IMG/VR virus record: IMGVR_UViG_2579779168_000001
Length of the DNA stretch: 20,000 nucleotides
Strand: one strand, 5' to 3'
Source of the DNA: an uncultured virus (IMG/VR IMGVR_UViG_2579779168_000001)
Lineage: Duplodnaviria; Heunggongvirae; Uroviricota; Caudoviricetes
Below the pieces are notes generated by a model, which had not been told where the DNA came from, searched no databases, and worked only from the letters and a program-made list of their open reading frames with translations. Every line of letters begins with the position of its first letter. Position 1 is the stretch's first letter. Of the stretch, positions 5,180 to 20,000 are shown one piece after another. Made by a program: the position numbers and the translations under genes.

Positions 5180-6579
5180 GCCACCCTCATGAATTTTGGA
5201 AGCGGAGACGCCTGAGACGGCGCGTAATCGTTGAGGACCGAGGAGGAGAGGGCCGCACGGCCCATGGCCGCCGTCATCTCTCGCTTCATGAGATCGTGGT
5301 CCCCGGCCTTGCGGGCGATTGCCTGTCCGATCGCCGCCTCGGTGTCGGCACAGACGACATGGACATGAACGGGCCGCGTTTGGCCAAAACGCCAGCAGCG
5401 CCGAACTGCCTGGTAATAGCTCTCGTAGGAGAAGCTGAGCCCGACGAAGGCCATGCGGGCACAGTGCTGCCAGTTCAGGCCATATCCTGCGACCGATGGC
5501 TTGCTGATCAGGTGCTTGATCTCGCCGCGGGAGAAGGCGTCGAGGCGCTTTTCTTTGATCTCCGCGATCTGGCTGCCACGGACCTCCGTCGCATCGGGCA
5601 TCGCCTCGCGAAGTGCATCGGCCTCATAGTCGGTGTCGCACCAGATAATCCATGGCTCGCCCGCATCCGCCGCGACGATCTCTGCAACCTTCTCCGCGCG
5701 AGCTCGCACGGTCATACGCTTCTCTCGATGGATGGAGGTGGCGGACATCTCTGGCAGACGGAACATGCGAGCCTGCCCGTCGCGCTCCTCGCCGGCATCG
5801 CCGCTCACATCGGCTCGAATGAGGTGGCGATGCTGGACGAGCTCGGGCAGCACATAACCATCGTCCGGGAAACCGATATCAGACGGCATGCCGATGCATC
5901 GCGACCACGAAGCCATCCATTCCCAGAACGACTTGGCGGCGGCACGCTTCAGCCGATAGCGCGCCATCTGCGCCTGGTCCGAGATGAACCAGCGTGAAAG
6001 CATTTCGTTCGCGGCCATGACACCGAGAAAGGCCGATTGCTGGCCCAGTTCCATGTGATCGTTCGGCGCCGGCGTCGCCGTCGCGGAAAGGCGATATGGC
6101 GTCGACTTGAAGATCTCGATCAGCTTGCGTGTCGTGACGCCCGTAAAGCTCTTGAGGATCGACGACTCGTCGAGAATGACCGCGCCGAACTGCGAGACAT
6201 CGAAGCGATCCAGTCGCTCATAGTTGGTGATGACGATGCGGGCGCGATCGGAGGGGACTGGCTCGCGCCGGAAGACGGCATCAATGCCCCAGCGCTGCGC
6301 CTCGCGCTCATGCTGGGCCCCAACGGCGAGCGGTGCCAGCATCAGCGCCGGCCGGTTGGTATGTTCAACGACGACGCGGCCGTATTCGAGCGCGGCGAAG
6401 CTCTTGCCCAGGCCAGTATCGAGGAAATGCGCTGCGCGGCCGGTGCGTAGGGCGAACTCGACGCAATGTTCCTGATGCGGCTTTAGCGCTGAATTCAGGG
6501 CTGGGATCCGCGCAAGCCCCGATGGCACGGCAGCGATGCGCTTAGATGCAACCAGGGCGTGATAGGCCTCAATGCTCAT
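5176..6579 (-). CDS. SNF2-related (SF2) helicase/ATPase
   Basis: LKPHQ, DTGLGKS (motif I), ILDESS (II), SATATPAPND (III), GLNWQ (V), QAVRRCWRFGQ (VI); ATG at 6579 overlaps the upstream stop. Confidence 0.92.
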   Translation of the reverse strand: MSIEAYHALVASKRIAAVPSGLARIPALNSALKPHQEHCVEFALRTGRAAHFLDTGLGKSFAALEYGRVVVEHTNRPALMLAPLAVGAQHEREAQRWGIDAVFRREPVPSDRARIVITNYERLDRFDVSQFGAVILDESSILKSFTGVTTRKLIEIFKSTPYRLSATATPAPNDHMELGQQSAFLGVMAANEMLSRWFISDQAQMARYRLKRAAAKSFWEWMASWSRCIGMPSDIGFPDDGYVLPELVQHRHLIRADVSGDAGEERDGQARMFRLPEMSATSIHREKRMTVRARAEKVAEIVAADAGEPWIIWCDTDYEADALREAMPDATEVRGSQIAEIKEKRLDAFSRGEIKHLISKPSVAGYGLNWQHCARMAFVGLSFSYESYYQAVRRCWRFGQTRPVHVHVVCADTEAAIGQAIARKAGDHDLMKREMTAAMGRAALSSSVLNDYAPSQASPLPKFMRVA

Positions 6580-6911
6580 GCCACGCCTCCCCGCAGGAGG
6601 CATTCGGCGGCGCGCTGATCGAAGGTGGCGCGAGCAATGCCGATGTTGCGGCAGTAGGCCGCGATCCGCTGTTCCAGATCACGAGGGAGGCTGGTCTGGT
6701 CGATCACCTCAATGGAGCGCGCGCGGTTCGGCAGGCGGCGGATAGCGCCGCGCTCCTCAAGATTGGCCATCAGTCGGAACACGCCTGACTTGGAGCGTAG
6801 ACCAACTCCGGCTGCCATCTGCTCATAGGAAGGCGGCTGCCCTTCGCGAGCGGCAAACTCGTTCACGAAATCCAACAGCGCGCGCTGCCGCTTTGTCAGG
6901 CCCGTGCTCAT
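6576..6911 (-). CDS. LexA-type winged-helix DNA-binding protein lacking the peptidase domain; short RHH-like C-terminus
   Basis: LTKRQRALLDFV...PPSYEQM...LRSKSGVFRLMANLEERGAIRRLPNRARSIEVI closely resembles the alphaproteobacterial LexA N-terminus. Only 111 aa, with no Ser/Lys dyad domain. Confidence 0.88.
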   Translation of the reverse strand: MSTGLTKRQRALLDFVNEFAAREGQPPSYEQMAAGVGLRSKSGVFRLMANLEERGAIRRLPNRARSIEVIDQTSLPRDLEQRIAAYCRNIGIARATFDQRAAECLLRGGVA

Positions 6912-9635: not shown

Positions 9636-9705
9636 GTATCGCTACACTAAGTAGCGATACTGGTCAATGCGGCACGTAGCGATATGGGCGCTACATTCTG
9701 TAGCA
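9636..9705. promoter_or_regulatory. OR-like operator region with divergent promoters
   Basis: Perfect palindrome GTATCGCTAC-actaa-GTAGCGATAC (9636-9660), half-degenerate site caatgc-N5-GTAGCG (9665-9681), and CGCTAC-attct-GTAGCa (9689-9705). The minus strand has TTGACC-N17-TAGCGA towards cro. Confidence 0.85.
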
Positions 9706-10460
9706 TGACCGACGACCGCATTCGAAAAGTTCAGGGGCAGCGGCTCGCTGAAGCTCGCCTCAAAGCGGGGTGGCGCTCGTCACGAGCAGCGGCGATTGAA
9801 AATGGTTGGGCAGAGTCCAGCTATCGCGCCCACGAAAACGGCAGCCGGACGATCGGCCAGAACGACGCCGAGACTTATGCGCGACGCTTTCGCGCTGCCG
9901 GAGTAAGCATCACCGCTCAAGAAATCCTGTTTGGTCCTAGTGCGGACGCTTCCCAGGATGACGCCTCTAAGCCCGACGAGCTCATCGTAGCCGGCGCGCG
10001 CATCCCTCTCTCTGATCGAGCCCTGCGCGGCGGCGCTCGTGACCTGCCAGTACCCGGAATCGCCCTTGGAGGTTCGGAGGAGGAAGGCGATTTTCAGCTC
10101 AATGGCGAGGTCCAGTACTTCTTGGACCGGCCTGCCGGGCTCGTTGGACGGAAGCGAGCATTTGCCGTCGTCATTCGGAACGACAGCATGATCCATTCCT
10201 ATAGGCCGAGCTGGCCGATCTTCGTGGATCCTGATGGGCGCCAGCCTGTCGCAGGCGTCGATGATGTCTTGATCGAACTCTATTCCGAGGAAGAGGGTCG
10301 GGCCGGACCGGCGTTTGTGAAGAAGCTCGTCTCGCGACGTGGCAGCGAGGTTGTTCTGTGGCAACAGAACCCCGAGAAGGAGATCCGCTTTCCTATTGAT
10401 CGGGTGAAGCAAATTCTCCGTGTTATCCCCTACCCCGAGGCTATGGGGTTGTCTGTGTGA
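9705..10460 (+). CDS. cI: CI-like repressor: XRE HTH plus S24 autopeptidase (alternative start at 9684)
   Basis: RLAEARLKAGW.S...AA..NGW..SSYRAHENGSR HTH; IALGG cleavage-site region; RNDSM (Ser) and FVKKL (Lys) catalytic motifs. Confidence 0.92.
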   Translation: MTDDRIRKVQGQRLAEARLKAGWRSSRAAAIENGWAESSYRAHENGSRTIGQNDAETYARRFRAAGVSITAQEILFGPSADASQDDASKPDELIVAGARIPLSDRALRGGARDLPVPGIALGGSEEEGDFQLNGEVQYFLDRPAGLVGRKRAFAVVIRNDSMIHSYRPSWPIFVDPDGRQPVAGVDDVLIELYSEEEGRAGPAFVKKLVSRRGSEVVLWQQNPEKEIRFPIDRVKQILRVIPYPEAMGLSV

Positions 10461-12324: not shown

Positions 12325-12635
12325 GCACGCGGGTTCTCCACATCCCGGCAAAAAGCCTGAGCGAGGCGCGCATGGTTGCGCATGCTGTCGAGGCCGGTCG
12401 CGTGCCCTGCCTCAAGCAGTATCTCGACGAAGCCCGCGCGAAGGCATCGGCCGCTTCCCTGACCGAGCTTCACCGCGTCCCGTACACCGTGATCCCGATC
12501 ATCATGGTTGATGGGTTGACCGACGACGGCCGGATCAAGATCGCACGTGTCGCCAATACGGCCGGGCAGGCAGTGGCCGCCCTTCTCCTCGTCATCGGCG
12601 GCTCCTTCCTCGTCGGATGGGGAAGCCTGCTGTGA
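12321..12635 (+). CDS. Phage protein with a C-terminal transmembrane helix (104 aa)
   Basis: ATGA overlap; ends AVAALLLVIGGSFLVGWGSLL. Confidence 0.7.
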   Translation: MSTRVLHIPAKSLSEARMVAHAVEAGRVPCLKQYLDEARAKASAASLTELHRVPYTVIPIIMVDGLTDDGRIKIARVANTAGQAVAALLLVIGGSFLVGWGSLL

Positions 12636-12758
12636 CGCGCATTTCACGCCTTGCTGGGGAGGCGGCGCAGGCCGCCGTTCCCCCTTCGCCCGGCCCGCTC
12701 TCGATGGTCGAGAACCGGGATGGTGTCCGCCTCTCCAGCAAACCCAGGGGAGATCGCG

Positions 12759-12947
12759 ATGCAGCCTGAACCGCTGTTCCAGGCGTTCGATGCCGGTTGG
12801 CTGATCATCGGCGGCGCTGTGCTGCTGATCGGCGCCCTCTGGTGGGACATCAACCGCAGCGATGAGCCCGTTCACGACGATGAGGACTGGGATGTCGAGC
12901 CCCGCCGGCACGACCCGGAAGCCGACGCCCGGAACTGGCCATTCTGA
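12759..12947 (+). CDS. Small single-pass membrane protein (62 aa)
   Basis: GGGGAG SD at 12747-12752; WLIIGGAVLLIGALWW TM segment followed by an acidic tail. Confidence 0.65.
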   Translation: MQPEPLFQAFDAGWLIIGGAVLLIGALWWDINRSDEPVHDDEDWDVEPRRHDPEADARNWPF

Positions 12948-12979
12948 ACCAAAACCCAACTCAAGCAGGAACAAGATCC

Positions 12980-13795
12980 ATGGCACAGGAATGGCTTGAA
13001 GACGCCAACGGCAACCGCTGTTCGGTCGAGTATTTCGGCTCCCGCGAGGAAGCGCAGAAGGCTCTCGATAGCCTCGAAAACTGCGAGAATTGCGCCAACT
13101 GCTCGCGCTGCTCGGGCTGCTCGGACTGCTCGGACTGCTCGNNNNNNNNNNNNNNNNNNNNNNNNNNNNNNNNNNNNNNNNNNNNNNNNNNNNNNNNNNN
13201 NNNNNNNNNNNNNNNNNNNNNNNNNNNNNNNNNNNNNNNNNNNNNNNNNNNNNNNNNNNNNNNNNNNNNNNNNNNNNNNNNNNNNNNNNNNNNNNNNNNN
13301 NGCTCGCGCTGCTCGCGCTGCTCGGGCTGCTCGCGCTGCTCGGGCTGCTCGGACTGCTCGGGCTGCTCGGACTGCTCGCGCTGCTCGGGCTGCTCGCATG
13401 TCGCCTTCCTCTGGAACAAGAAGGACGAGAAGGGCGACCCGAGCGCCGACATCCCGGCCGGACCGCCGCAGGTTCCTGTCATCGAGAATATCCACCAGAA
13501 GGTGTTCGAGGCCGCTTCGGCGCCCGGCGCGCTGCGCATGAGCTCGTGGCACACCTGCGGCACGACGCACTGCCGAGCCGGCTGGGTCGTTCATCTTGCA
13601 GGCGACGCTGGTTATGCGCTGGAGCGGTTTTTCAACACCGAGCTCGCGGCGATGAAGATTTACGACGCGAGCAGCGATCTTCCCAAGGTCTCGCCCGTCC
13701 ACTTCTACGACGGCAACGAAGCCGCCCTCGCCGACATGAAGCGCATGGCGGATCTGGAAGCGGCCGCCAACGCGCCAGAGCCGCAGGCGGCCTGA
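12980..13795 (+). CDS. Cys-rich tripeptide-repeat (CSx)n protein with a C-terminal WHTCGTTHCRAGW domain; spans an assembly gap
   Basis: AGGA SD upstream; unique N- and C-terminal domains flank in-frame CSR/CSG/CSD repeats; true length is uncertain because of the N run. Confidence 0.75.
   Translation: MAQEWLEDANGNRCSVEYFGSREEAQKALDSLENCENCANCSRCSGCSDCSDCSXXXXXXXXXXXXXXXXXXXXXXXXXXXXXXXXXXXXXXXXXXXXXXXXXXXXXXSRCSRCSGCSRCSGCSDCSGCSDCSRCSGCSHVAFLWNKKDEKGDPSADIPAGPPQVPVIENIHQKVFEAASAPGALRMSSWHTCGTTHCRAGWVVHLAGDAGYALERFFNTELAAMKIYDASSDLPKVSPVHFYDGNEAALADMKRMADLEAAANAPEPQAA
13081..13396 (+). repeat. 9-bp tandem repeat TGCTCG(CGC/GGC/GAC), interrupted by a 160-N gap at 13142-13301
   Basis: Repeat units are directly visible on both sides of the gap. 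Confidence 0.9.
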
Positions 13796-13956
13796 TGCCA
13801 ACCCGGCGCGCCTCCGATGGTTCGTTGAGGCGCGCCACCCTCGCAGTCCACATGCGGCTCCAAGCCGAAACGGAAGCCCGCAAGGCCGGGCTGCAAATCA
13901 CAGCCTGGCGCGACGGCAAGCCGGTCGTCCGCCTCCCGATGAGGAAGCCGAAATGA
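13795..13956 (+). CDS. Small basic phage protein (53 aa, MPTRRASDGSL...)
   Basis: TGATG and ATGA overlaps with both neighbours. Confidence 0.6.
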   Translation: MPTRRASDGSLRRATLAVHMRLQAETEARKAGLQITAWRDGKPVVRLPMRKPK

Positions 13957-14897
13957 CCGAAGCCGCGCTGAAAGAGGATTTCTCATACTGGAAGGCGCAG
14001 TTGGCCGGCCAGAACCCCGAACTGACCGACAAGCTGCCGCGTTGCGGCTGCTATCGGTACCGCGGCGATCCGGTCCTGATCCGCGTCGTCGACGGGACCA
14101 TGTTCGCCTGGATTGGCCGCAAAGGTCAGCAGACGCGCCGGCTGGCTGACGCCTCGTTCGCGGAGACGACCTTCTCGTTCTTCTGCCGCGACGCCATCAG
14201 CTCAGACCTCTACGACGCCGTCGCCAACAAGAACCAGCCGTGGCCGGAGGACATCGAGAGCCTCGACGACGCCCGCTCCAACTTTCCGACCGATCCGTTC
14301 GAAGCGCTGATCGCAGAGCTCGATCTGATCGAGTTGAAGATCGCCGAGTTTTTCAAGACGCCGGTCCTTGCCGGAGACGATGTCCGCGCCCTTCAGGCCG
14401 ACAAGTGGAAGGAACGAGCGCGCGAACTCTCCGGCAAGATCGAGGACATGCGGGTCGCGGCGAAAAAGCCGATCGATCAGCAGGCCAAGGAGATCCAGAA
14501 GAAGTTCGTTCCGCCGCGCGACCGCGCCGATGCCTTGGTCTCCAAGGTCAATACCGGAATGTCGGTCTATTCCCTGGCGAAGAAGCGGGCTGTCGAGGCG
14601 CAGGAAGCCGCTGATCGCGCGGCGCGGGTAAAAGCTGCCGCTGCCATGGGCGAAGCCGCCCCGGTTGAGCAGGCGCCCGTGCGCGGCCGCAGCAAGGTCG
14701 CCACCAACAGCACGACCGTCCGGACGCGCAAGGTGGCCGTCATCAATGATCTGCCCGCCGCGGCAGCTTTCTATGCGGCCCTCCCCGAGCCCCCGGTCCA
14801 GTTCGTGACGGTCATCAAGCAGATGGCCGAGCAGAACCTAAAAACCGGCGTCGCCGTGCCGGGCTGCGAACTGAAAACCCTCGAATACGTCGCCTGA
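13953..14897 (+). CDS. Coiled-coil phage protein of the recombination module (314 aa)
   Basis: AAKKPIDQQAKEIQKKF coiled coil and C-terminal VPGC motif, reminiscent of Gp157/DUF1351/Gam-like proteins that precede annealing proteins; exact family not assigned. Confidence 0.75.
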   Translation: MTEAALKEDFSYWKAQLAGQNPELTDKLPRCGCYRYRGDPVLIRVVDGTMFAWIGRKGQQTRRLADASFAETTFSFFCRDAISSDLYDAVANKNQPWPEDIESLDDARSNFPTDPFEALIAELDLIELKIAEFFKTPVLAGDDVRALQADKWKERARELSGKIEDMRVAAKKPIDQQAKEIQKKFVPPRDRADALVSKVNTGMSVYSLAKKRAVEAQEAADRAARVKAAAAMGEAAPVEQAPVRGRSKVATNSTTVRTRKVAVINDLPAAAAFYAALPEPPVQFVTVIKQMAEQNLKTGVAVPGCELKTLEYVA

Positions 14898-14906
14898 GAG
14901 GCCATC

Positions 14907-16127
14907 ATGAACGCCATTGCCAAAATCGAGCCGCGCAAGTCCGTCATCGCCACCCTTGCCGATTCCTACGGGATGGAGGCGCAGGCCTTCGAGGCGACCT
15001 TGAGGGGTACGGTGTTCCCGGCATCGGGGACGCGCGAGGAATTCGCCGCCTTTGTGCTCGTCGCGAAGGAATACCGGCTGAACCCGCTTCTGCGCGAGAT
15101 CTATGCCTTCCCGAAGAAGGGCGGCGGCATCGTTCCGATCGTCGGCATCGACGGCTGGCTGAACCTTATCAATGGCCACCAGCAGTTCGACGGCATGGAA
15201 TTCGACCAGCACGACGACGAGAAGGGCGCTCTGATCGCGGTCACCTGCCGCATCTTCCGCAAGGATCGGTCCCATCCGACGGTGGTGACCGAGTATCTCG
15301 AGGAGTGCATTCGGGGCACCGAGCCCTGGAAGATGAAGCGCCGGATGCTACGCCACAAGGCGGCCATGCAGTGCGCCCGCTATGCCTTCGGCTTCAGCGG
15401 CATCTACGACGAGGACGAAGCCGCCGATATCGCCCAGGTGCGCGAAGTTGGCGGGGGCTCGCTTCCAACCGCGCCGCCGCCCCCTCCTTCTGACGATGAA
15501 CTCAATTCGGCTTTGAACGTTGAGGATGCAGTCGTCGTTTCCGATTCCGCTGATATCGCTCCCAAGGATGCAGCGGACGCCGCCGGCGCATCGACAACGG
15601 CCCCCCAGTCCGACGATGCGCCGGTGGCACCCTCCGATGATGCGATCGATCCCGAGGCCGAACTGTCGAACCTCGACGAGAAGCTAGGCTTCGCGACCAA
15701 CTCCGATGATGTCGAAGCCTGGTACGTCGAGACGGATGTCGAGGCGGTGCTGGCTGACTTCTCCGGCTTCGTGGAGCGCGCCCGTGAGATCCGCGACCGT
15801 CACGTTCAGCGGACCTCGCGCCAGACCGATGCATCTCCCGCTGCGCCGTCCGCCGATGAGGCCAGCGACGATGTTCCACCACCTCCGGCCGGCGATGATG
15901 ATGCTGGCCAGCCGGAGGATATGAGCACGCCGGAAGCCTATGAGGCTCTGGTGAAGGCGAAGCTGACCGCCGCCAGCGACTTCAAGGGCTACGAGGAGGT
16001 CCGCTCCTGGTGGAGCGCAACGCGACCTGTCCGGCACGCCCTCGGCATCAAAGAGCACGCTGATATCGAGCGGCTGCAGAACCACTTCGCTGCCCGCAAG
16101 GGCGAGCTCGAAAAGGCGAAGGGCTGA
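14907..16127 (+). CDS. bet: Single-strand annealing protein, lambda Bet/RecT family, with a long acidic C-terminal extension
   Basis: YRLNPLLREIYAFPKKGGGIVPIVGIDGWL...CRIFRKDRSHP...EY..EC...PW...RMLRHKA.MQCARYAFGFSGIYDEDEA is the hallmark Red-beta core. Confidence 0.93.
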   Translation: MNAIAKIEPRKSVIATLADSYGMEAQAFEATLRGTVFPASGTREEFAAFVLVAKEYRLNPLLREIYAFPKKGGGIVPIVGIDGWLNLINGHQQFDGMEFDQHDDEKGALIAVTCRIFRKDRSHPTVVTEYLEECIRGTEPWKMKRRMLRHKAAMQCARYAFGFSGIYDEDEAADIAQVREVGGGSLPTAPPPPPSDDELNSALNVEDAVVVSDSADIAPKDAADAAGASTTAPQSDDAPVAPSDDAIDPEAELSNLDEKLGFATNSDDVEAWYVETDVEAVLADFSGFVERAREIRDRHVQRTSRQTDASPAAPSADEASDDVPPPPAGDDDAGQPEDMSTPEAYEALVKAKLTAASDFKGYEEVRSWWSATRPVRHALGIKEHADIERLQNHFAARKGELEKAKG

Positions 16128-16912: not shown

Positions 16913-17073
16913 TGATCTGCGCTCGCTGCCACACCGACACGGTTACATGGCGCGGACCTCTCTCGGCGCTGACGCACACCGAATGCTCTTCGTGCGGCAG
17001 CATCAACTGCCTGCACGTCGAGCAGCCGGCTGATGCGGAAGGCGATCAGGAGGAGGCTCCTGATGCGTCGTGA
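16912..17073 (+). CDS. Small Zn-ribbon protein (53 aa)
   Basis: MICARC...ECSSCGSINC; GGAGG SD; overlaps both neighbours. Confidence 0.65.
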   Translation: MICARCHTDTVTWRGPLSALTHTECSSCGSINCLHVEQPADAEGDQEEAPDAS

Positions 17074-17419
17074 ATTCTCCCGCAAAACCCGATCCCAGGC
17101 ATTTGCCCGCTCCCGAGGAAACTGCGAAGCCTGCGGCGCGCGGCTGATGCCCGGAAAGTTCCGCTACGACCACATCCTGCCCGACGCCCTCGGCGGCGAG
17201 CCGACGCTTGAGAATTGCAAGGTCCAGTGCGTGACCTGCGATGCGCCGAAGACCGCAGCAGACGTCACCCGCATCCGCAAAGCCGACCGCCAGCGGGACA
17301 AGCACACCGGCGCCTATGAGCGGAAGAAGTGGCCGAAGCAGATCCGCCGTCCGGCTCCGCCGCAGCGCCGCGCCACGGCTCCGCTGTCCAAGCCCCTTCC
17401 TCCCCGGCGGTTCACATGA
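17063..17419 (+). CDS. HNH endonuclease-like protein
   Basis: CEACG...YDHILPDALGGEPTLENCKVQCVTCDAPKT; GGAGG SD. Confidence 0.85.
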   Translation: MRREFSRKTRSQAFARSRGNCEACGARLMPGKFRYDHILPDALGGEPTLENCKVQCVTCDAPKTAADVTRIRKADRQRDKHTGAYERKKWPKQIRRPAPPQRRATAPLSKPLPPRRFT

Positions 17420-18450: not shown

Positions 18451-18744
18451 ATGCAACTGGCGCCGCAACCCTCCCAGGTCCGCTACACGGTCGATCCTCG
18501 CGACGTGCCGCCGGTCAAGGCTGCGCGTCGCCTTCATCTGACCCTGTCGGAGTTCGAGCGCATCCTTCCACGCCTGCTTCAGCGCGGTTTCCCACGACCG
18601 GATCCGGACACGGGCAACTACGATCTGAAGGCTGTCGATCAATGGATGGATAACCGCTCGACCTTGACCCCCGCGAATCAGCCGCGCGATGCTCGAGAGG
18701 TTACCGCTGAGCGCCTTGCCGAATTGGCTAAGAGGCGCCGATGA
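18451..18744 (+). CDS. Excisionase-like (winged HTH, AlpA/Xis-type) protein
   Basis: KAARRLHLTLSEF...RGFPRPDPDTGNYDLKAVDQWMD (FP.P...Y...AV..W pattern); ATGA overlap with the integrase. Confidence 0.75.
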   Translation: MQLAPQPSQVRYTVDPRDVPPVKAARRLHLTLSEFERILPRLLQRGFPRPDPDTGNYDLKAVDQWMDNRSTLTPANQPRDAREVTAERLAELAKRRR

Positions 18745-20000
18745 ACCGCATCGAGCACCTCATGGGCAAAGACACGATCCGGCACCTGATCTTCATGAGG
18801 AACAGGTGGCGCTACAAGCCCTCGCATCTGATGAAGCCGCACGGATTCAAGTTCCTGACGTTCGGCCCTGGTATGATGGTCGGGAACCACAACGTTCCCT
18901 CCCCTGAGGATCAGCAGCGGGCGATCGAGCTCAACGCAGAGTGGGATCGCATACGTCTCGGGCTGCAGCAGGATGCCGCGCCGCGCTACGCGCCGGGTAC
19001 CGTCGGCGCTGCCTATCTCCGCGTCATTAAGATGCGCAGCGCTGAGTTGGCGAAACAAGGGCTCAAGCAGAGCAAGGACCAACAGACGAGGGACGACTGG
19101 CCCCGCGCCTGGACCTGGATCGGTCCACTCTGGGGCGACACCGATCCGAAGACGATCCAGCCGGAGGCATTCCTGTCGATCGATGAGAGGACCGGCGAAG
19201 CGACCGGCCTGGTCGCCCTCATTGAGAAGCAGGTCTCGATTTCCGAGCGCCACCGCGTGGTCAAGGTCTGGCGCGCGCTGTGGAAGAAGATGGCAGCGAT
19301 GGGATACTGTGCGCTCGATGCTGACCCGTCGCTCGCATTCGCGAACCGAGCCCCAGATGCCCGGCAGGCGATCTGGTCCGAGGGCGAGGTTGTGCGGCTG
19401 TGCAAGCGCGCATGGCGCATGGGGTACAAGGGGCTCGCGGCCTGCATGGCCACGGCTTGGGACAGCCAGCTTTCTCCTATCGACCTGCGATCTCTGACGA
19501 CAGGACAGCGGGCCGACGACATACAGGGCGCGATCTTCTCTCTTGCGCGCACCAAGACCGGGCGCGCCGCCGCGGCGTCCCTCGGCAAGCGCGCAACGTG
19601 GGCGCTAGACGCCTATATCGCCAGCCTCTCGTTTGAGCTTCTGCCGAACGTGCCGATCTTCCGGACGCGTGGAAGCGGCACGACGAAGAAGGGTGGCAAG
19701 CCGCAACCGCCCTCCCCGTACACGAAAAACAAGCTCGCGGAGGACTTCCGGACGATTCGCACGGCGGAGTTAGGCGAGGCCGAGGATCGAAAGCTATCCG
19801 ATATGCGTCGGTCTGGCACGGTTGAGGCCACTGCAGGCGGCGCAGATGCGCAGGCCGTTTCCACCAAGATGGCCAATACGCTCGCTGCCTCAGCCCGGCT
19901 TCAGAAGACCTATAACCCGGTCAACTTGGTTACGGTGCGGGAAGTGGATGCGATCAGGAGAGAGGGCCGGGCCAAGCTTCGCGAGAACAAAACGCGCTGA
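18741..20000 (+). CDS. int: Integrase-like tyrosine recombinase with non-canonical active-site motifs
   Basis: 419 aa after the xis-like gene at the end of the early operon. W...E...L; QLSPIDLRSL (box I); RTKTG (Lys); LSDMRRSG (box II); MANT...KTY (Tyr). Confidence 0.8.
   Translation: MNRIEHLMGKDTIRHLIFMRNRWRYKPSHLMKPHGFKFLTFGPGMMVGNHNVPSPEDQQRAIELNAEWDRIRLGLQQDAAPRYAPGTVGAAYLRVIKMRSAELAKQGLKQSKDQQTRDDWPRAWTWIGPLWGDTDPKTIQPEAFLSIDERTGEATGLVALIEKQVSISERHRVVKVWRALWKKMAAMGYCALDADPSLAFANRAPDARQAIWSEGEVVRLCKRAWRMGYKGLAACMATAWDSQLSPIDLRSLTTGQRADDIQGAIFSLARTKTGRAAAASLGKRATWALDAYIASLSFELLPNVPIFRTRGSGTTKKGGKPQPPSPYTKNKLAEDFRTIRTAELGEAEDRKLSDMRRSGTVEATAGGADAQAVSTKMANTLAASARLQKTYNPVNLVTVREVDAIRREGRAKLRENKTR

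Follow-up and report, generated by a model that had tools for sequence, protein, structure and literature searches.

Can a tyrosine recombinase whose active site departs from the canonical one at three catalytic positions still be a working integrase? The question is raised by int, the last gene of a 20,000-nucleotide stretch of DNA from an uncultured virus of the Caudoviricetes (IMG/VR record IMGVR_UViG_2579779168_000001), which is referred to here as the window. Tyrosine recombinases are textbook enzymes that are recognised by their catalytic residues, through which their chemistry is explained as well, and the first catalytic arginine (Arg I) is regarded as essential in the enzymes that have been studied. 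An initial annotation had remarked that Arg I, the first histidine (His II) and the His/Trp at position III are all replaced in int, and had taken this to mark an atypical subfamily of integrases and not the decay of the gene. Our analysis leads us to read int, with a probability of roughly 0.78, as the working integrase of a lambdoid prophage, and as a member of a tyrosine-recombinase branch that is invisible to the domain databases.

18741..20000, + strand: int, a 419-residue integrase of tyrosine-recombinase fold with non-canonical catalytic residues (open reading frame and translation, AlphaFold2 model)

An intact gene with a lambda-type fold

The open reading frame (ORF) is intact, as had been proposed: translation gives 419 residues followed by a TGA stop that forms the last three bases of the window, and the motifs by which the gene had first been described fall at their assigned residues, namely DSQLSPIDL (S245), ARTKTGR (K272), LSDMRRS (S353 and R356), KMANT (N379) and KTYNP (Y391). 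The ATG start overlaps the stop codon of an upstream ORF of 97 residues (ATGA, 18741-18744) and has the sequence AAGAGG 5 nt upstream.

No match to the protein was returned by Pfam, even at E<=10, by PHROGs or NCBIfam, or by a search of PDB chain sequences, and a 50-sequence profile of its family, searched against the PDB sequences, retrieved no recombinase and only two chance Nup98 rows at E>1. PF00589, the Pfam model of the catalytic domain, had no match at the family gene in the five genomes that were scanned. Named source records listed for the family are all 'hypothetical'. In the ESM Atlas, one neighbouring cluster of 114 members, which share no common Pfam domain, bears the automatic name 'tyrosine-type recombinase/integrase', and another is called 'putative Tyr recombinase domain-containing protein' and has PF00589 on 12% of its members. 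The integrase nature of the family has therefore already been guessed by annotators, given these automatic names and one GenBank phage record in which a relative is called 'integrase'.

An AlphaFold2 model of int built on 50 relatives has a mean predicted local distance difference test score (pLDDT) of 88.1. In an exhaustive structural search with VIA-align over 48,161 chains, the best match is full-length lambda Int (1z1b_A, Z 17.4): 311 residues are aligned, between positions 5-419 of the model and 8-354 of the chain, with a root-mean-square deviation (rmsd) of 12.5 over three mobile domains. The next matches are again lambda Int (1p7d_A, Z 15.8, rmsd 3.8, 259 aligned) and 6emy_A (Z 15.7, rmsd 3.1, 261 aligned). 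Foldseek retrieved 60 PDB chains at E<=1e-3; among the matches listed almost all are tyrosine recombinases, with lambda Int, XerA, Cre, IntI and the Tn1549 Int at the top. The modelled protein divides into three domains:

18774..18956, + strand: N-terminal arm-binding-type domain, about residues 12-72, four short strands and a helix (secondary structure of the model)
18996..19355, + strand: core-binding (SAM-like) domain, about residues 86-205 (VIA matches 2oxo_A and 2kkp)
19356..19997, + strand: catalytic domain, about residues 206-419 (VIA match 1ae9_B; hhalign against PF00589-positive proteins)

The core-binding domain matches 2oxo_A (Z 11.0, rmsd 2.1, 92 aligned) and 2kkp (Z 11.1), and the catalytic domain matches the catalytic core of lambda Int (1ae9_B, Z 14.1, rmsd 2.9, 155 aligned, model residues 209-401). 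The model thus gives int all three domains of a lambda-type integrase (arm-binding, core-binding and catalytic), and we regard its superfamily and lambda-type architecture as certain. This likeness is one of structure, unlike what is seen at the level of sequence, where neither phmmer nor the family profile against the PDB recovers lambda Int. A relaxase role of the MpsA kind was considered and set aside: according to the portion of PMC9299015 consulted, MpsA-type proteins have no core-binding domain, which is present here, and the gene lies at the end of a prophage.

Catalytic positions kept and replaced

A profile of 46 diverse, full-length family members was aligned with hhalign to 24 PF00589-positive recombinases taken from five genomes that also carry the family, with a probability of 98.8% and an E value of 9.6e-17 over 334 columns. 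When the close-family alignment was set against lambda Int alone, hhalign returned prob 0.4 and no usable match, and the 24-enzyme canonical profile was needed. A MAFFT alignment that includes the Int of phage lambda gives the same residue map as hhalign. The catalytic residues of lambda Int are R212, K235, H308, R311, H333 and Y342, and the map reads as follows:

19473..19475, + strand: codon of S245, at the Arg I position (lambda R212; hhalign, MAFFT)
int residue 248: D248, the acidic residue of box I (lambda D215; hhalign, MAFFT)
19548..19556, + strand: codons of R270, T271 and K272, the last being the beta-hairpin Lys (lambda K235; alignments)
19797..19811, + strand: codons of S353, D354, M355, R356 and R357, with 353 at the His II position (lambda H308) and R356 as the second catalytic arginine, Arg II (lambda R311; alignments)
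19875..19877, + strand: codon of N379, at the His/Trp III position (lambda H333), aligned to the canonical GH motif (alignments)
19911..19913, + strand: codon of Y391, the predicted nucleophile (lambda Y342; alignments)

Both alignments thus bear out the substitutions first noticed (Ser for Arg I, Ser353 for His II, Asn379 for His III) as well as the retention of Lys272 and Arg356. The canonical positions that are kept are the beta-hairpin Lys, Arg II and the Tyr, Y391 being aligned with the Tyr of the 24 canonical enzymes. Those that are replaced are Arg I, His II and His/Trp III: where lambda Int has R212, H308 and H333, int has S, S (at a position that is variable in the family) and N. The unusual spacing between N379 and Y391 was also recovered, at 12 residues against 9 in lambda (and a usual value of about 9), the three extra residues appearing as an insertion in hhalign. 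The Lys motif is close to that of lambda Int, with RTKTG in place of xxSKTG. Although the sequence of int does not satisfy the PF00589 model, its homology to PF00589 proteins is given by the hhalign match of 98.8% and by intermediate relatives, which are described below.

Conservation of the altered active site

Of the 8,000 candidates scored in a word-indexed search, 457 are relatives at E<=1e-3; every one of these is unnamed or 'hypothetical', and none has a precomputed Pfam domain. An exhaustive profile search over 1.84 billion representatives gave 1,522 matches at E<=1e-3, 923 at E<=1e-10 and 327 at E<=1e-30, of which the weaker ones may be canonical integrases that match through their two N-terminal domains only. 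A locus scan with one genome per species yielded 48 loci, all from Hyphomicrobiales or from unclassified Alphaproteobacteria/Pseudomonadota but for one short contig of a metagenome-assembled genome labelled Chthoniobacterales.

In 50 close relatives S245, P246, D248, R270, K272, D354, R356, R357, N379 and Y391 are invariant. Across the 46 diverse representatives, which share 29-52% identity, K272, D354, R356, R357, E362, N379, Y391 and R406 are present in every member and R270 in 45. Position 245 is mostly Ser (37 members), with Q in four, A in two and G, M and R in one each. Position 353 is highly variable (R 13, A 11, L 8, M 7, S 2, K 2, others). The pair S245 and R270 occurs in 222 of the 270 sequences collected, and the deviants are mostly fragments. 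Of the motifs first singled out (SPxD, DxRRS and MAN), S245, P246, D248, D354, R356, R357 and N379 are conserved in the close relatives, and residue 245 varies in the diverse set.

Compared with an 84%-identical orthologue in locus L002, int has a ratio of nonsynonymous to synonymous substitution rates (dN/dS) of 0.118 over 419 ungapped codons. Were this copy a decaying pseudogene of a canonical integrase, as its unusual residues alone might suggest, close homologues would be expected to show the canonical R/H/H set; instead S245 and N379 are shared by all 50 of them. The family-wide distribution of the residues, the dN/dS value and the intact reading frame rule this explanation out for practical purposes. 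The replaced residues are best described, from these alignments, as a family trait maintained by purifying selection and not as decay. The proposal of an atypical integrase subfamily is thereby upheld, together with the lambda-type fold and the tRNA-Asp footprints found in relatives.

Target site and footprints of integration

The region downstream of the gene was scanned for tRNAs in 39 of the 48 loci, nine being left out because the locus was short or the match incomplete. Past the int stop, at a distance of 70-450 nt, 34 of these 39 loci have a tRNA-Asp(GTC) gene, on the opposite strand and with its 3' end towards int. The T-arm word of this tRNA was searched for in five whole genomes carrying the family. 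Three of them hold two exact copies on the same contig, separated by 57, 22 and 58 kb. None of the three far copies is a tRNA gene; each belongs to an exact repeat (49, 61 and 50 bp, respectively) of the 3' part of tRNA-Asp. These far repeats stop at the same base in the anticodon stem-loop, and the sequences that flank them on either side are unrelated. In the fourth genome the word occurs once, beside a truncated int; the fifth has no copy near int and carries a stop in the frame of the xis-like gene. None of the 82 PF00589 matches in the five genomes, and none of the 14 PF00239 matches in three genomes, falls within the three repeat-bounded elements of 22-58 kb.

We propose that the elements of the family would integrate into the 3' part of tRNA genes, which for most members means tRNA-Asp(GTC); the block of identity reaches the anticodon loop. 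In this the family is unlike lambda, whose target is not a tRNA gene but a lambda-type attB. In IMG/VR, 29 contigs contain a relative, and in 13 of them no more than 400 nt separate the int stop from the contig end (the match end subtracted from the locus length).

Among deposited phage genomes, that of Microcystis phage vB_MweS-yong2 (OM681334.1) alone has a relative, and the copy is annotated 'integrase'. It matches int at 34.5% identity over 96% of the query in tblastn and at 38% over 381 columns in BLASTP, and has Q245, R270, K272, R356, R357, N379 and Y391. The 3' half of a tRNA follows, in reverse complement, about 70 nt beyond its stop (L086:5131-5330). By reading, this fragment comprises an anticodon stem-loop like that of tRNA-Arg(UCU), a T-arm and an acceptor end, and ARAGORN calls no tRNA there. 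Four copies of the 10-mer AAGTCGGATG flank the tRNA-like core. The region downstream of the integrase is a likely attP, as judged from these sequence features. It may be added that this is an otherwise alphaproteobacterial type of integrase in a phage deposited as a Microcystis phage.

Each of the five prophage loci inspected has two direct repeats, 9-20 nt long and with starts exactly 23 bp apart, in the interval from the int stop to the tRNA:

L002:11260-11293: 23-bp-spaced repeat pair
L013:11201-11232: 23-bp-spaced repeat pair
L007:11192-11234: 23-bp-spaced repeat pair
L012:11200-11238: 23-bp-spaced repeat pair
L033:11246-11280: 23-bp-spaced repeat pair

The sequence of the repeat varies by lineage (GAATTTGTAAC, AGTGTCACG, AAAGTGTAATGA and others). 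These pairs are candidate arm-type sites of the integrase, which would co-vary with its N-terminal domain.

Degraded copies of the system were also observed. A decayed one (L043:7698-11022) has a shortened int between two full tRNA-Asp genes; another (L004:10001-10909) has an int without residues 1-114 beside a tRNA-Asp, with no second repeat in the genome; and in a third (L042:9749-11297) the xis-like frame is interrupted by a stop and the vicinity lacks a tRNA-Asp. The neighbourhood of L004 further holds two canonical integrases (at about -10 kb and +14 kb) and may thus be a hot spot of integration.

A possible mechanism

That int is an active integrase, which would cut and rejoin DNA, we consider quite probable. 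In the mechanism we envisage, Y391 would be the nucleophile, and K272 and R356 would act in their canonical roles. N379 could hydrogen-bond the scissile phosphate in place of His/Trp III, as Asn can still donate such a bond. The His II position would be unused, its role having been either dropped or moved, because residue 353 is unconstrained. The charge of Arg I would be supplied by one of two invariant, family-specific arginines, most likely R270 and otherwise R357; lambda Int has Q233 at the first of these positions and a gap at the second. R270 stands two residues before K272 and so would lie on the same face of the beta-strand.

Basic residues compensating for the loss of Arg I had been part of the initial annotation, which named R357, R250 and the RTRG...KKGGK insert as examples. 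Only R357 (46 of 46 diverse members) retains that standing, since R250 is W or C in 6 of the 46 and the insert is missing from many family members. For R270 there is co-variation. In a 14-sequence alignment, the five sequences with R245 have Q, Q, Q, K and Q at position 270, and the nine without R245 have R (six) or K (three). Likewise, the sole member of the diverse set with R245 (P0220) is also the sole one with Q270. A replacement of Arg I by R270 is thus suggested by the alignments, tentatively and at slightly less than even odds. With similar reserve we put forward the picture as a whole, namely a family of active integrases that would keep only the Lys, Arg II and the Tyr, with Asn serving for III and R270 for Arg I.

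Several observations weigh against these interpretations. Three of the six catalytic positions differ from the canonical ones. Non-catalytic regulators with a tyrosine-recombinase fold exist, and two of them, MrpR (8a0a, Z 11.1) and SroF (9rd5, Z 12.1), are among the structural matches of int. We found no biochemical or genetic test of any family member in the literature. Five of the 39 loci (L014, L015, L036, L042 and L046) lack a nearby tRNA-Asp, and the window itself has neither a tRNA nor the tRNA-Asp T-arm word, as it ends at the int stop and its own att site would lie beyond base 20000. With regard to R270, P0220 is a singleton, and all of the 13 relatives found for it have A, S or Q at 245 and R270 where the region is present; with A245 and R270 in its nearest relatives, the independent co-variation events are few. 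Moreover, an Arg two residues before the Lys occurs in 6 of the 24 canonical recombinases that keep Arg I. The feature can therefore not be taken as unique to the family, and R270 is no clean swap for Arg I.

Part of this evidence would fit a protein that has the fold but is catalytically dead, acting in DNA binding or architecture or as a regulator in the manner of MrpR and SroF of SPbeta/phi3T, with integration left to a host enzyme or to an undetected enzyme encoded by the element. The replacement of Arg I, His II and His III together and the presence of the two regulators among the structural matches agree with it. However, Y391, K272 and R356 are invariant in all 46 diverse members, some of which have as little as 29% identity, and a protein that only binds DNA would not require them; integrases also reach Z 14-17 in the fold search against 11-12 for the regulators. 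The exact repeats of tRNA 3' ends, which are the footprint of a tyrosine integrase, bound elements that have no match to PF00589 or PF00239. In addition, int occupies the place of an integrase gene, not that of a repressor, and overlaps an excisionase-like one, and the window has a separate CI-like repressor. We consider an inactive protein unlikely.

Another possibility is that the recombinase is active but receives the missing Arg or His in trans, in a shared active site like that of Flp, from a neighbouring protomer (for instance through the invariant R406), from the xis-like protein or from another partner, and not from R270 or R357 in cis. The C-terminal segments of tyrosine recombinases are known to contact neighbouring protomers; R406 (46 of 46) lies on a long C-terminal helix (residues 396-416), and the stretch around Y391 includes residues 383-388, the only low-confidence loop in the catalytic domain of the model. 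Yet R348 of lambda Int is aligned to R406, which is therefore not specific to the family, whereas R270 and R357 are family-specific invariant arginines. A supply in trans appears quite improbable, and less so only than decay of the gene, and we retain an active integrase complemented in cis as the preferred interpretation.

Relation to known integrases

A natural precedent is provided by IntDOT, the integrase of CTnDOT. It reportedly has a Ser at Arg I and a substitute Arg two residues before the Lys, an arrangement that would be the exact equivalent of S245/R270/K272. In the excerpts of the literature consulted, the first Arg is described as missing in the CTnDOT, ERL and Tn5520 integrases (PMC8138268), and that of the CTnDOT integrase as functionally substituted by an Arg further downstream (Kim et al., 2010, cited in PMC8138268). 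Within the same excerpts, IntDOT is the only published natural loss of the first Arg with a downstream substitute that we found; PMC2034462 yielded no passage on the missing Arg. Of the features that characterize IntDOT, a missing Arg I and a conserved downstream Arg, the window family lacks Arg I and has R270 in 45 of 46 and R357 in 46 of 46 diverse members, either of which would be a candidate substitute. Unlike IntDOT, which according to that account keeps the other four residues of the pentad (PMC8138268), the window family is also without His II and His III. The two further differ in that IntDOT belongs to an integrative and conjugative element, not a prophage, and to another host phylum, the Bacteroidetes, and the comparison is one of descriptions.

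Other cases of natural variation in the pentad are given in the part of the same source that we consulted: IntDes has a shifted first Arg and a Tyr in place of the first His, and the first His of IntBPP-1 is weakly conserved (Smyshlyaev et al., 2021; PMC8138268). The window family resembles these in departing from the pentad, but differs from them in having no PF00589 match and in the combined loss of Arg I, His II and His III.

The distance between the family and canonical integrases is bridged by graded relatives. In a sample of 401 genomes of the phylum, 29 have a match to the family profile at E<=1e-5. The intermediates (L117-L125) are positive for both models, with E values of 1.8e-50 to 2.7e-14 for the family profile and of 1.1e-18 to 4e-4 for PF00589. 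They share with the window family the overall length and a box II of the form DLRR(T/S), and intermediate relatives read TGQRxGD and EQSKT, as does lambda Int. In L122, L123 and L125 Arg I, the GH motif and the Tyr are kept, and His II is R, K or A. Arg I is Pro and His II is Q or H in L117, L119 and L121, which keep GH and match PF00589 at E 1e-18 to 5e-14. The window family, in which all three residues and the PF00589 match are lost, stands at the extreme of this gradient. L126 and L127 are canonical integrases with Arm-DNA-bind_3 and PF00589, whose match to the family is confined to the two N-terminal domains. The graded loss of residues in these relatives suggests, on an unrooted comparison, that His II was lost first, followed by Arg I and then by His III. 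As a separate observation, L117, L118, L119 and L121 form a clade of PF00589-positive integrases with Pro at Arg I, Q or H at His II, a KK(K/E)R hairpin at the usual site of the Lys, and GH and Tyr kept. Arg I may have gone missing in this clade independently, as a second such case.

Genomic context and the xis-like gene

The window corresponds to a lambdoid prophage, and none of its 29 scanned ORFs matches PF00589. The landmarks on the + strand are:

9684-10457, + strand: CI-like repressor with an S24 peptidase domain
13953-14894, + strand: exonuclease-like gene
14907-16124, + strand: RecT
17033-17416, + strand: HNH endonuclease
18451..18744, + strand: xis-like gene, 97 residues, with GAGGAGG upstream of the ATG and an ATGA overlap with int (sequence, fold matches)

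The HNH endonuclease is followed on the + strand by small ORFs, the xis-like gene and int. The - strand encodes a DnaB-like helicase, a primosomal/replication initiator, a DNA methylase, an SNF2-type helicase, a LexA-like helix-turn-helix protein and a RuvC-like resolvase. The gene order is that of lambda (repressor, recombination genes, xis, int, att), and int is the last gene of a lambdoid early-left operon, coming as in lambda after exo/RecT and xis, and overlapping the latter.

The coupling of int to a xis-like gene, as originally described, is confirmed by the ATGA overlap. The AlphaFold2 model of the small protein (pLDDT 74.5) shows a helix-turn-helix with a short wing, and the top VIA matches among the 48,161 chains are excisionases: that of GIsul2 (8c3t_A, Z 5.8, rmsd 2.4, 54 of 57 residues aligned), RdfS (8dgl_A, Z 5.0) and the Xis of Pukovnik (4j2n_A, Z 4.4), with lambda Xis at Z 2.9. 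The gene has no significant Pfam match and no Foldseek match at E<=1e-3. Because the Z values are low in absolute terms, the matches are suggestive only, and we call the modelled protein excisionase-like rather than an excisionase; within the proposed mechanism this small winged-helix protein would probably act as the excisionase. A homologue of it lies directly upstream of int in 30 of the 48 related loci, and the other genes that precede it in the window each occur in at most two, from which int and the small xis-like gene form a conserved module at the end of varied cargo.

Three further features of the window deserve mention. The RecT/Bet-like annealing protein (14907-16127, + strand) has 406 residues, of which only 32-178 carry the RecT domain; the remainder consists of a long acidic tail rich in Pro, Ala and Asp and then a conserved C-terminal segment, and in L002 only the C-terminal part (residues 220-397) is matched, at 56%. 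The G+C content falls to 0.55 in the window at 12501-14000, against about 0.64 elsewhere. The dip covers an ORF (12980-13795, + strand) situated between the repressor region and the exo/RecT genes. Its only match is PHROG 31265, of unknown function, and it could be a moron acquired recently. Finally, apart from the CI-like gene (9684-10457, + strand), there is a second repressor-like gene (6579-6911, - strand) of 111 residues, which has a LexA-type DNA-binding domain only and sits in the replication operon beside the RuvC-like resolvase.

Implications

In the Creative Commons part of PMC and in bioRxiv, which leaves aside subscription journals and supplements, we found no paper describing this family or its active site. 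A large, selected and apparently functional family without Arg I, His II and His III would constitute a natural experiment on which residues are needed. If our interpretation is right, it would be an independent and more extreme repeat of the IntDOT solution, and the 'invariant' pentad would be an evolvable arrangement rather than a chemical necessity.

There are also consequences for annotation. Since Pfam, PHROGs and NCBIfam are blind to the family and its records are 'hypothetical', prophages and islands with an integrase of this type are counted as having none. The 2021 census of tyrosine recombinases by Smyshlyaev and colleagues is said to have been built on PF00589, its subgroups having reportedly been collected via the Pfam catalytic-domain model, and would miss the family. 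New integrases of this kind, whose tRNA targets are defined and whose arm sites seem simple, are also worth considering as genetic tools in Hyphomicrobiales (for example Bradyrhizobium, Xanthobacter and Bosea). More generally, if the family is what we propose, integrase surveys based on PF00589 would systematically miss a class of tRNA-targeting integrases.

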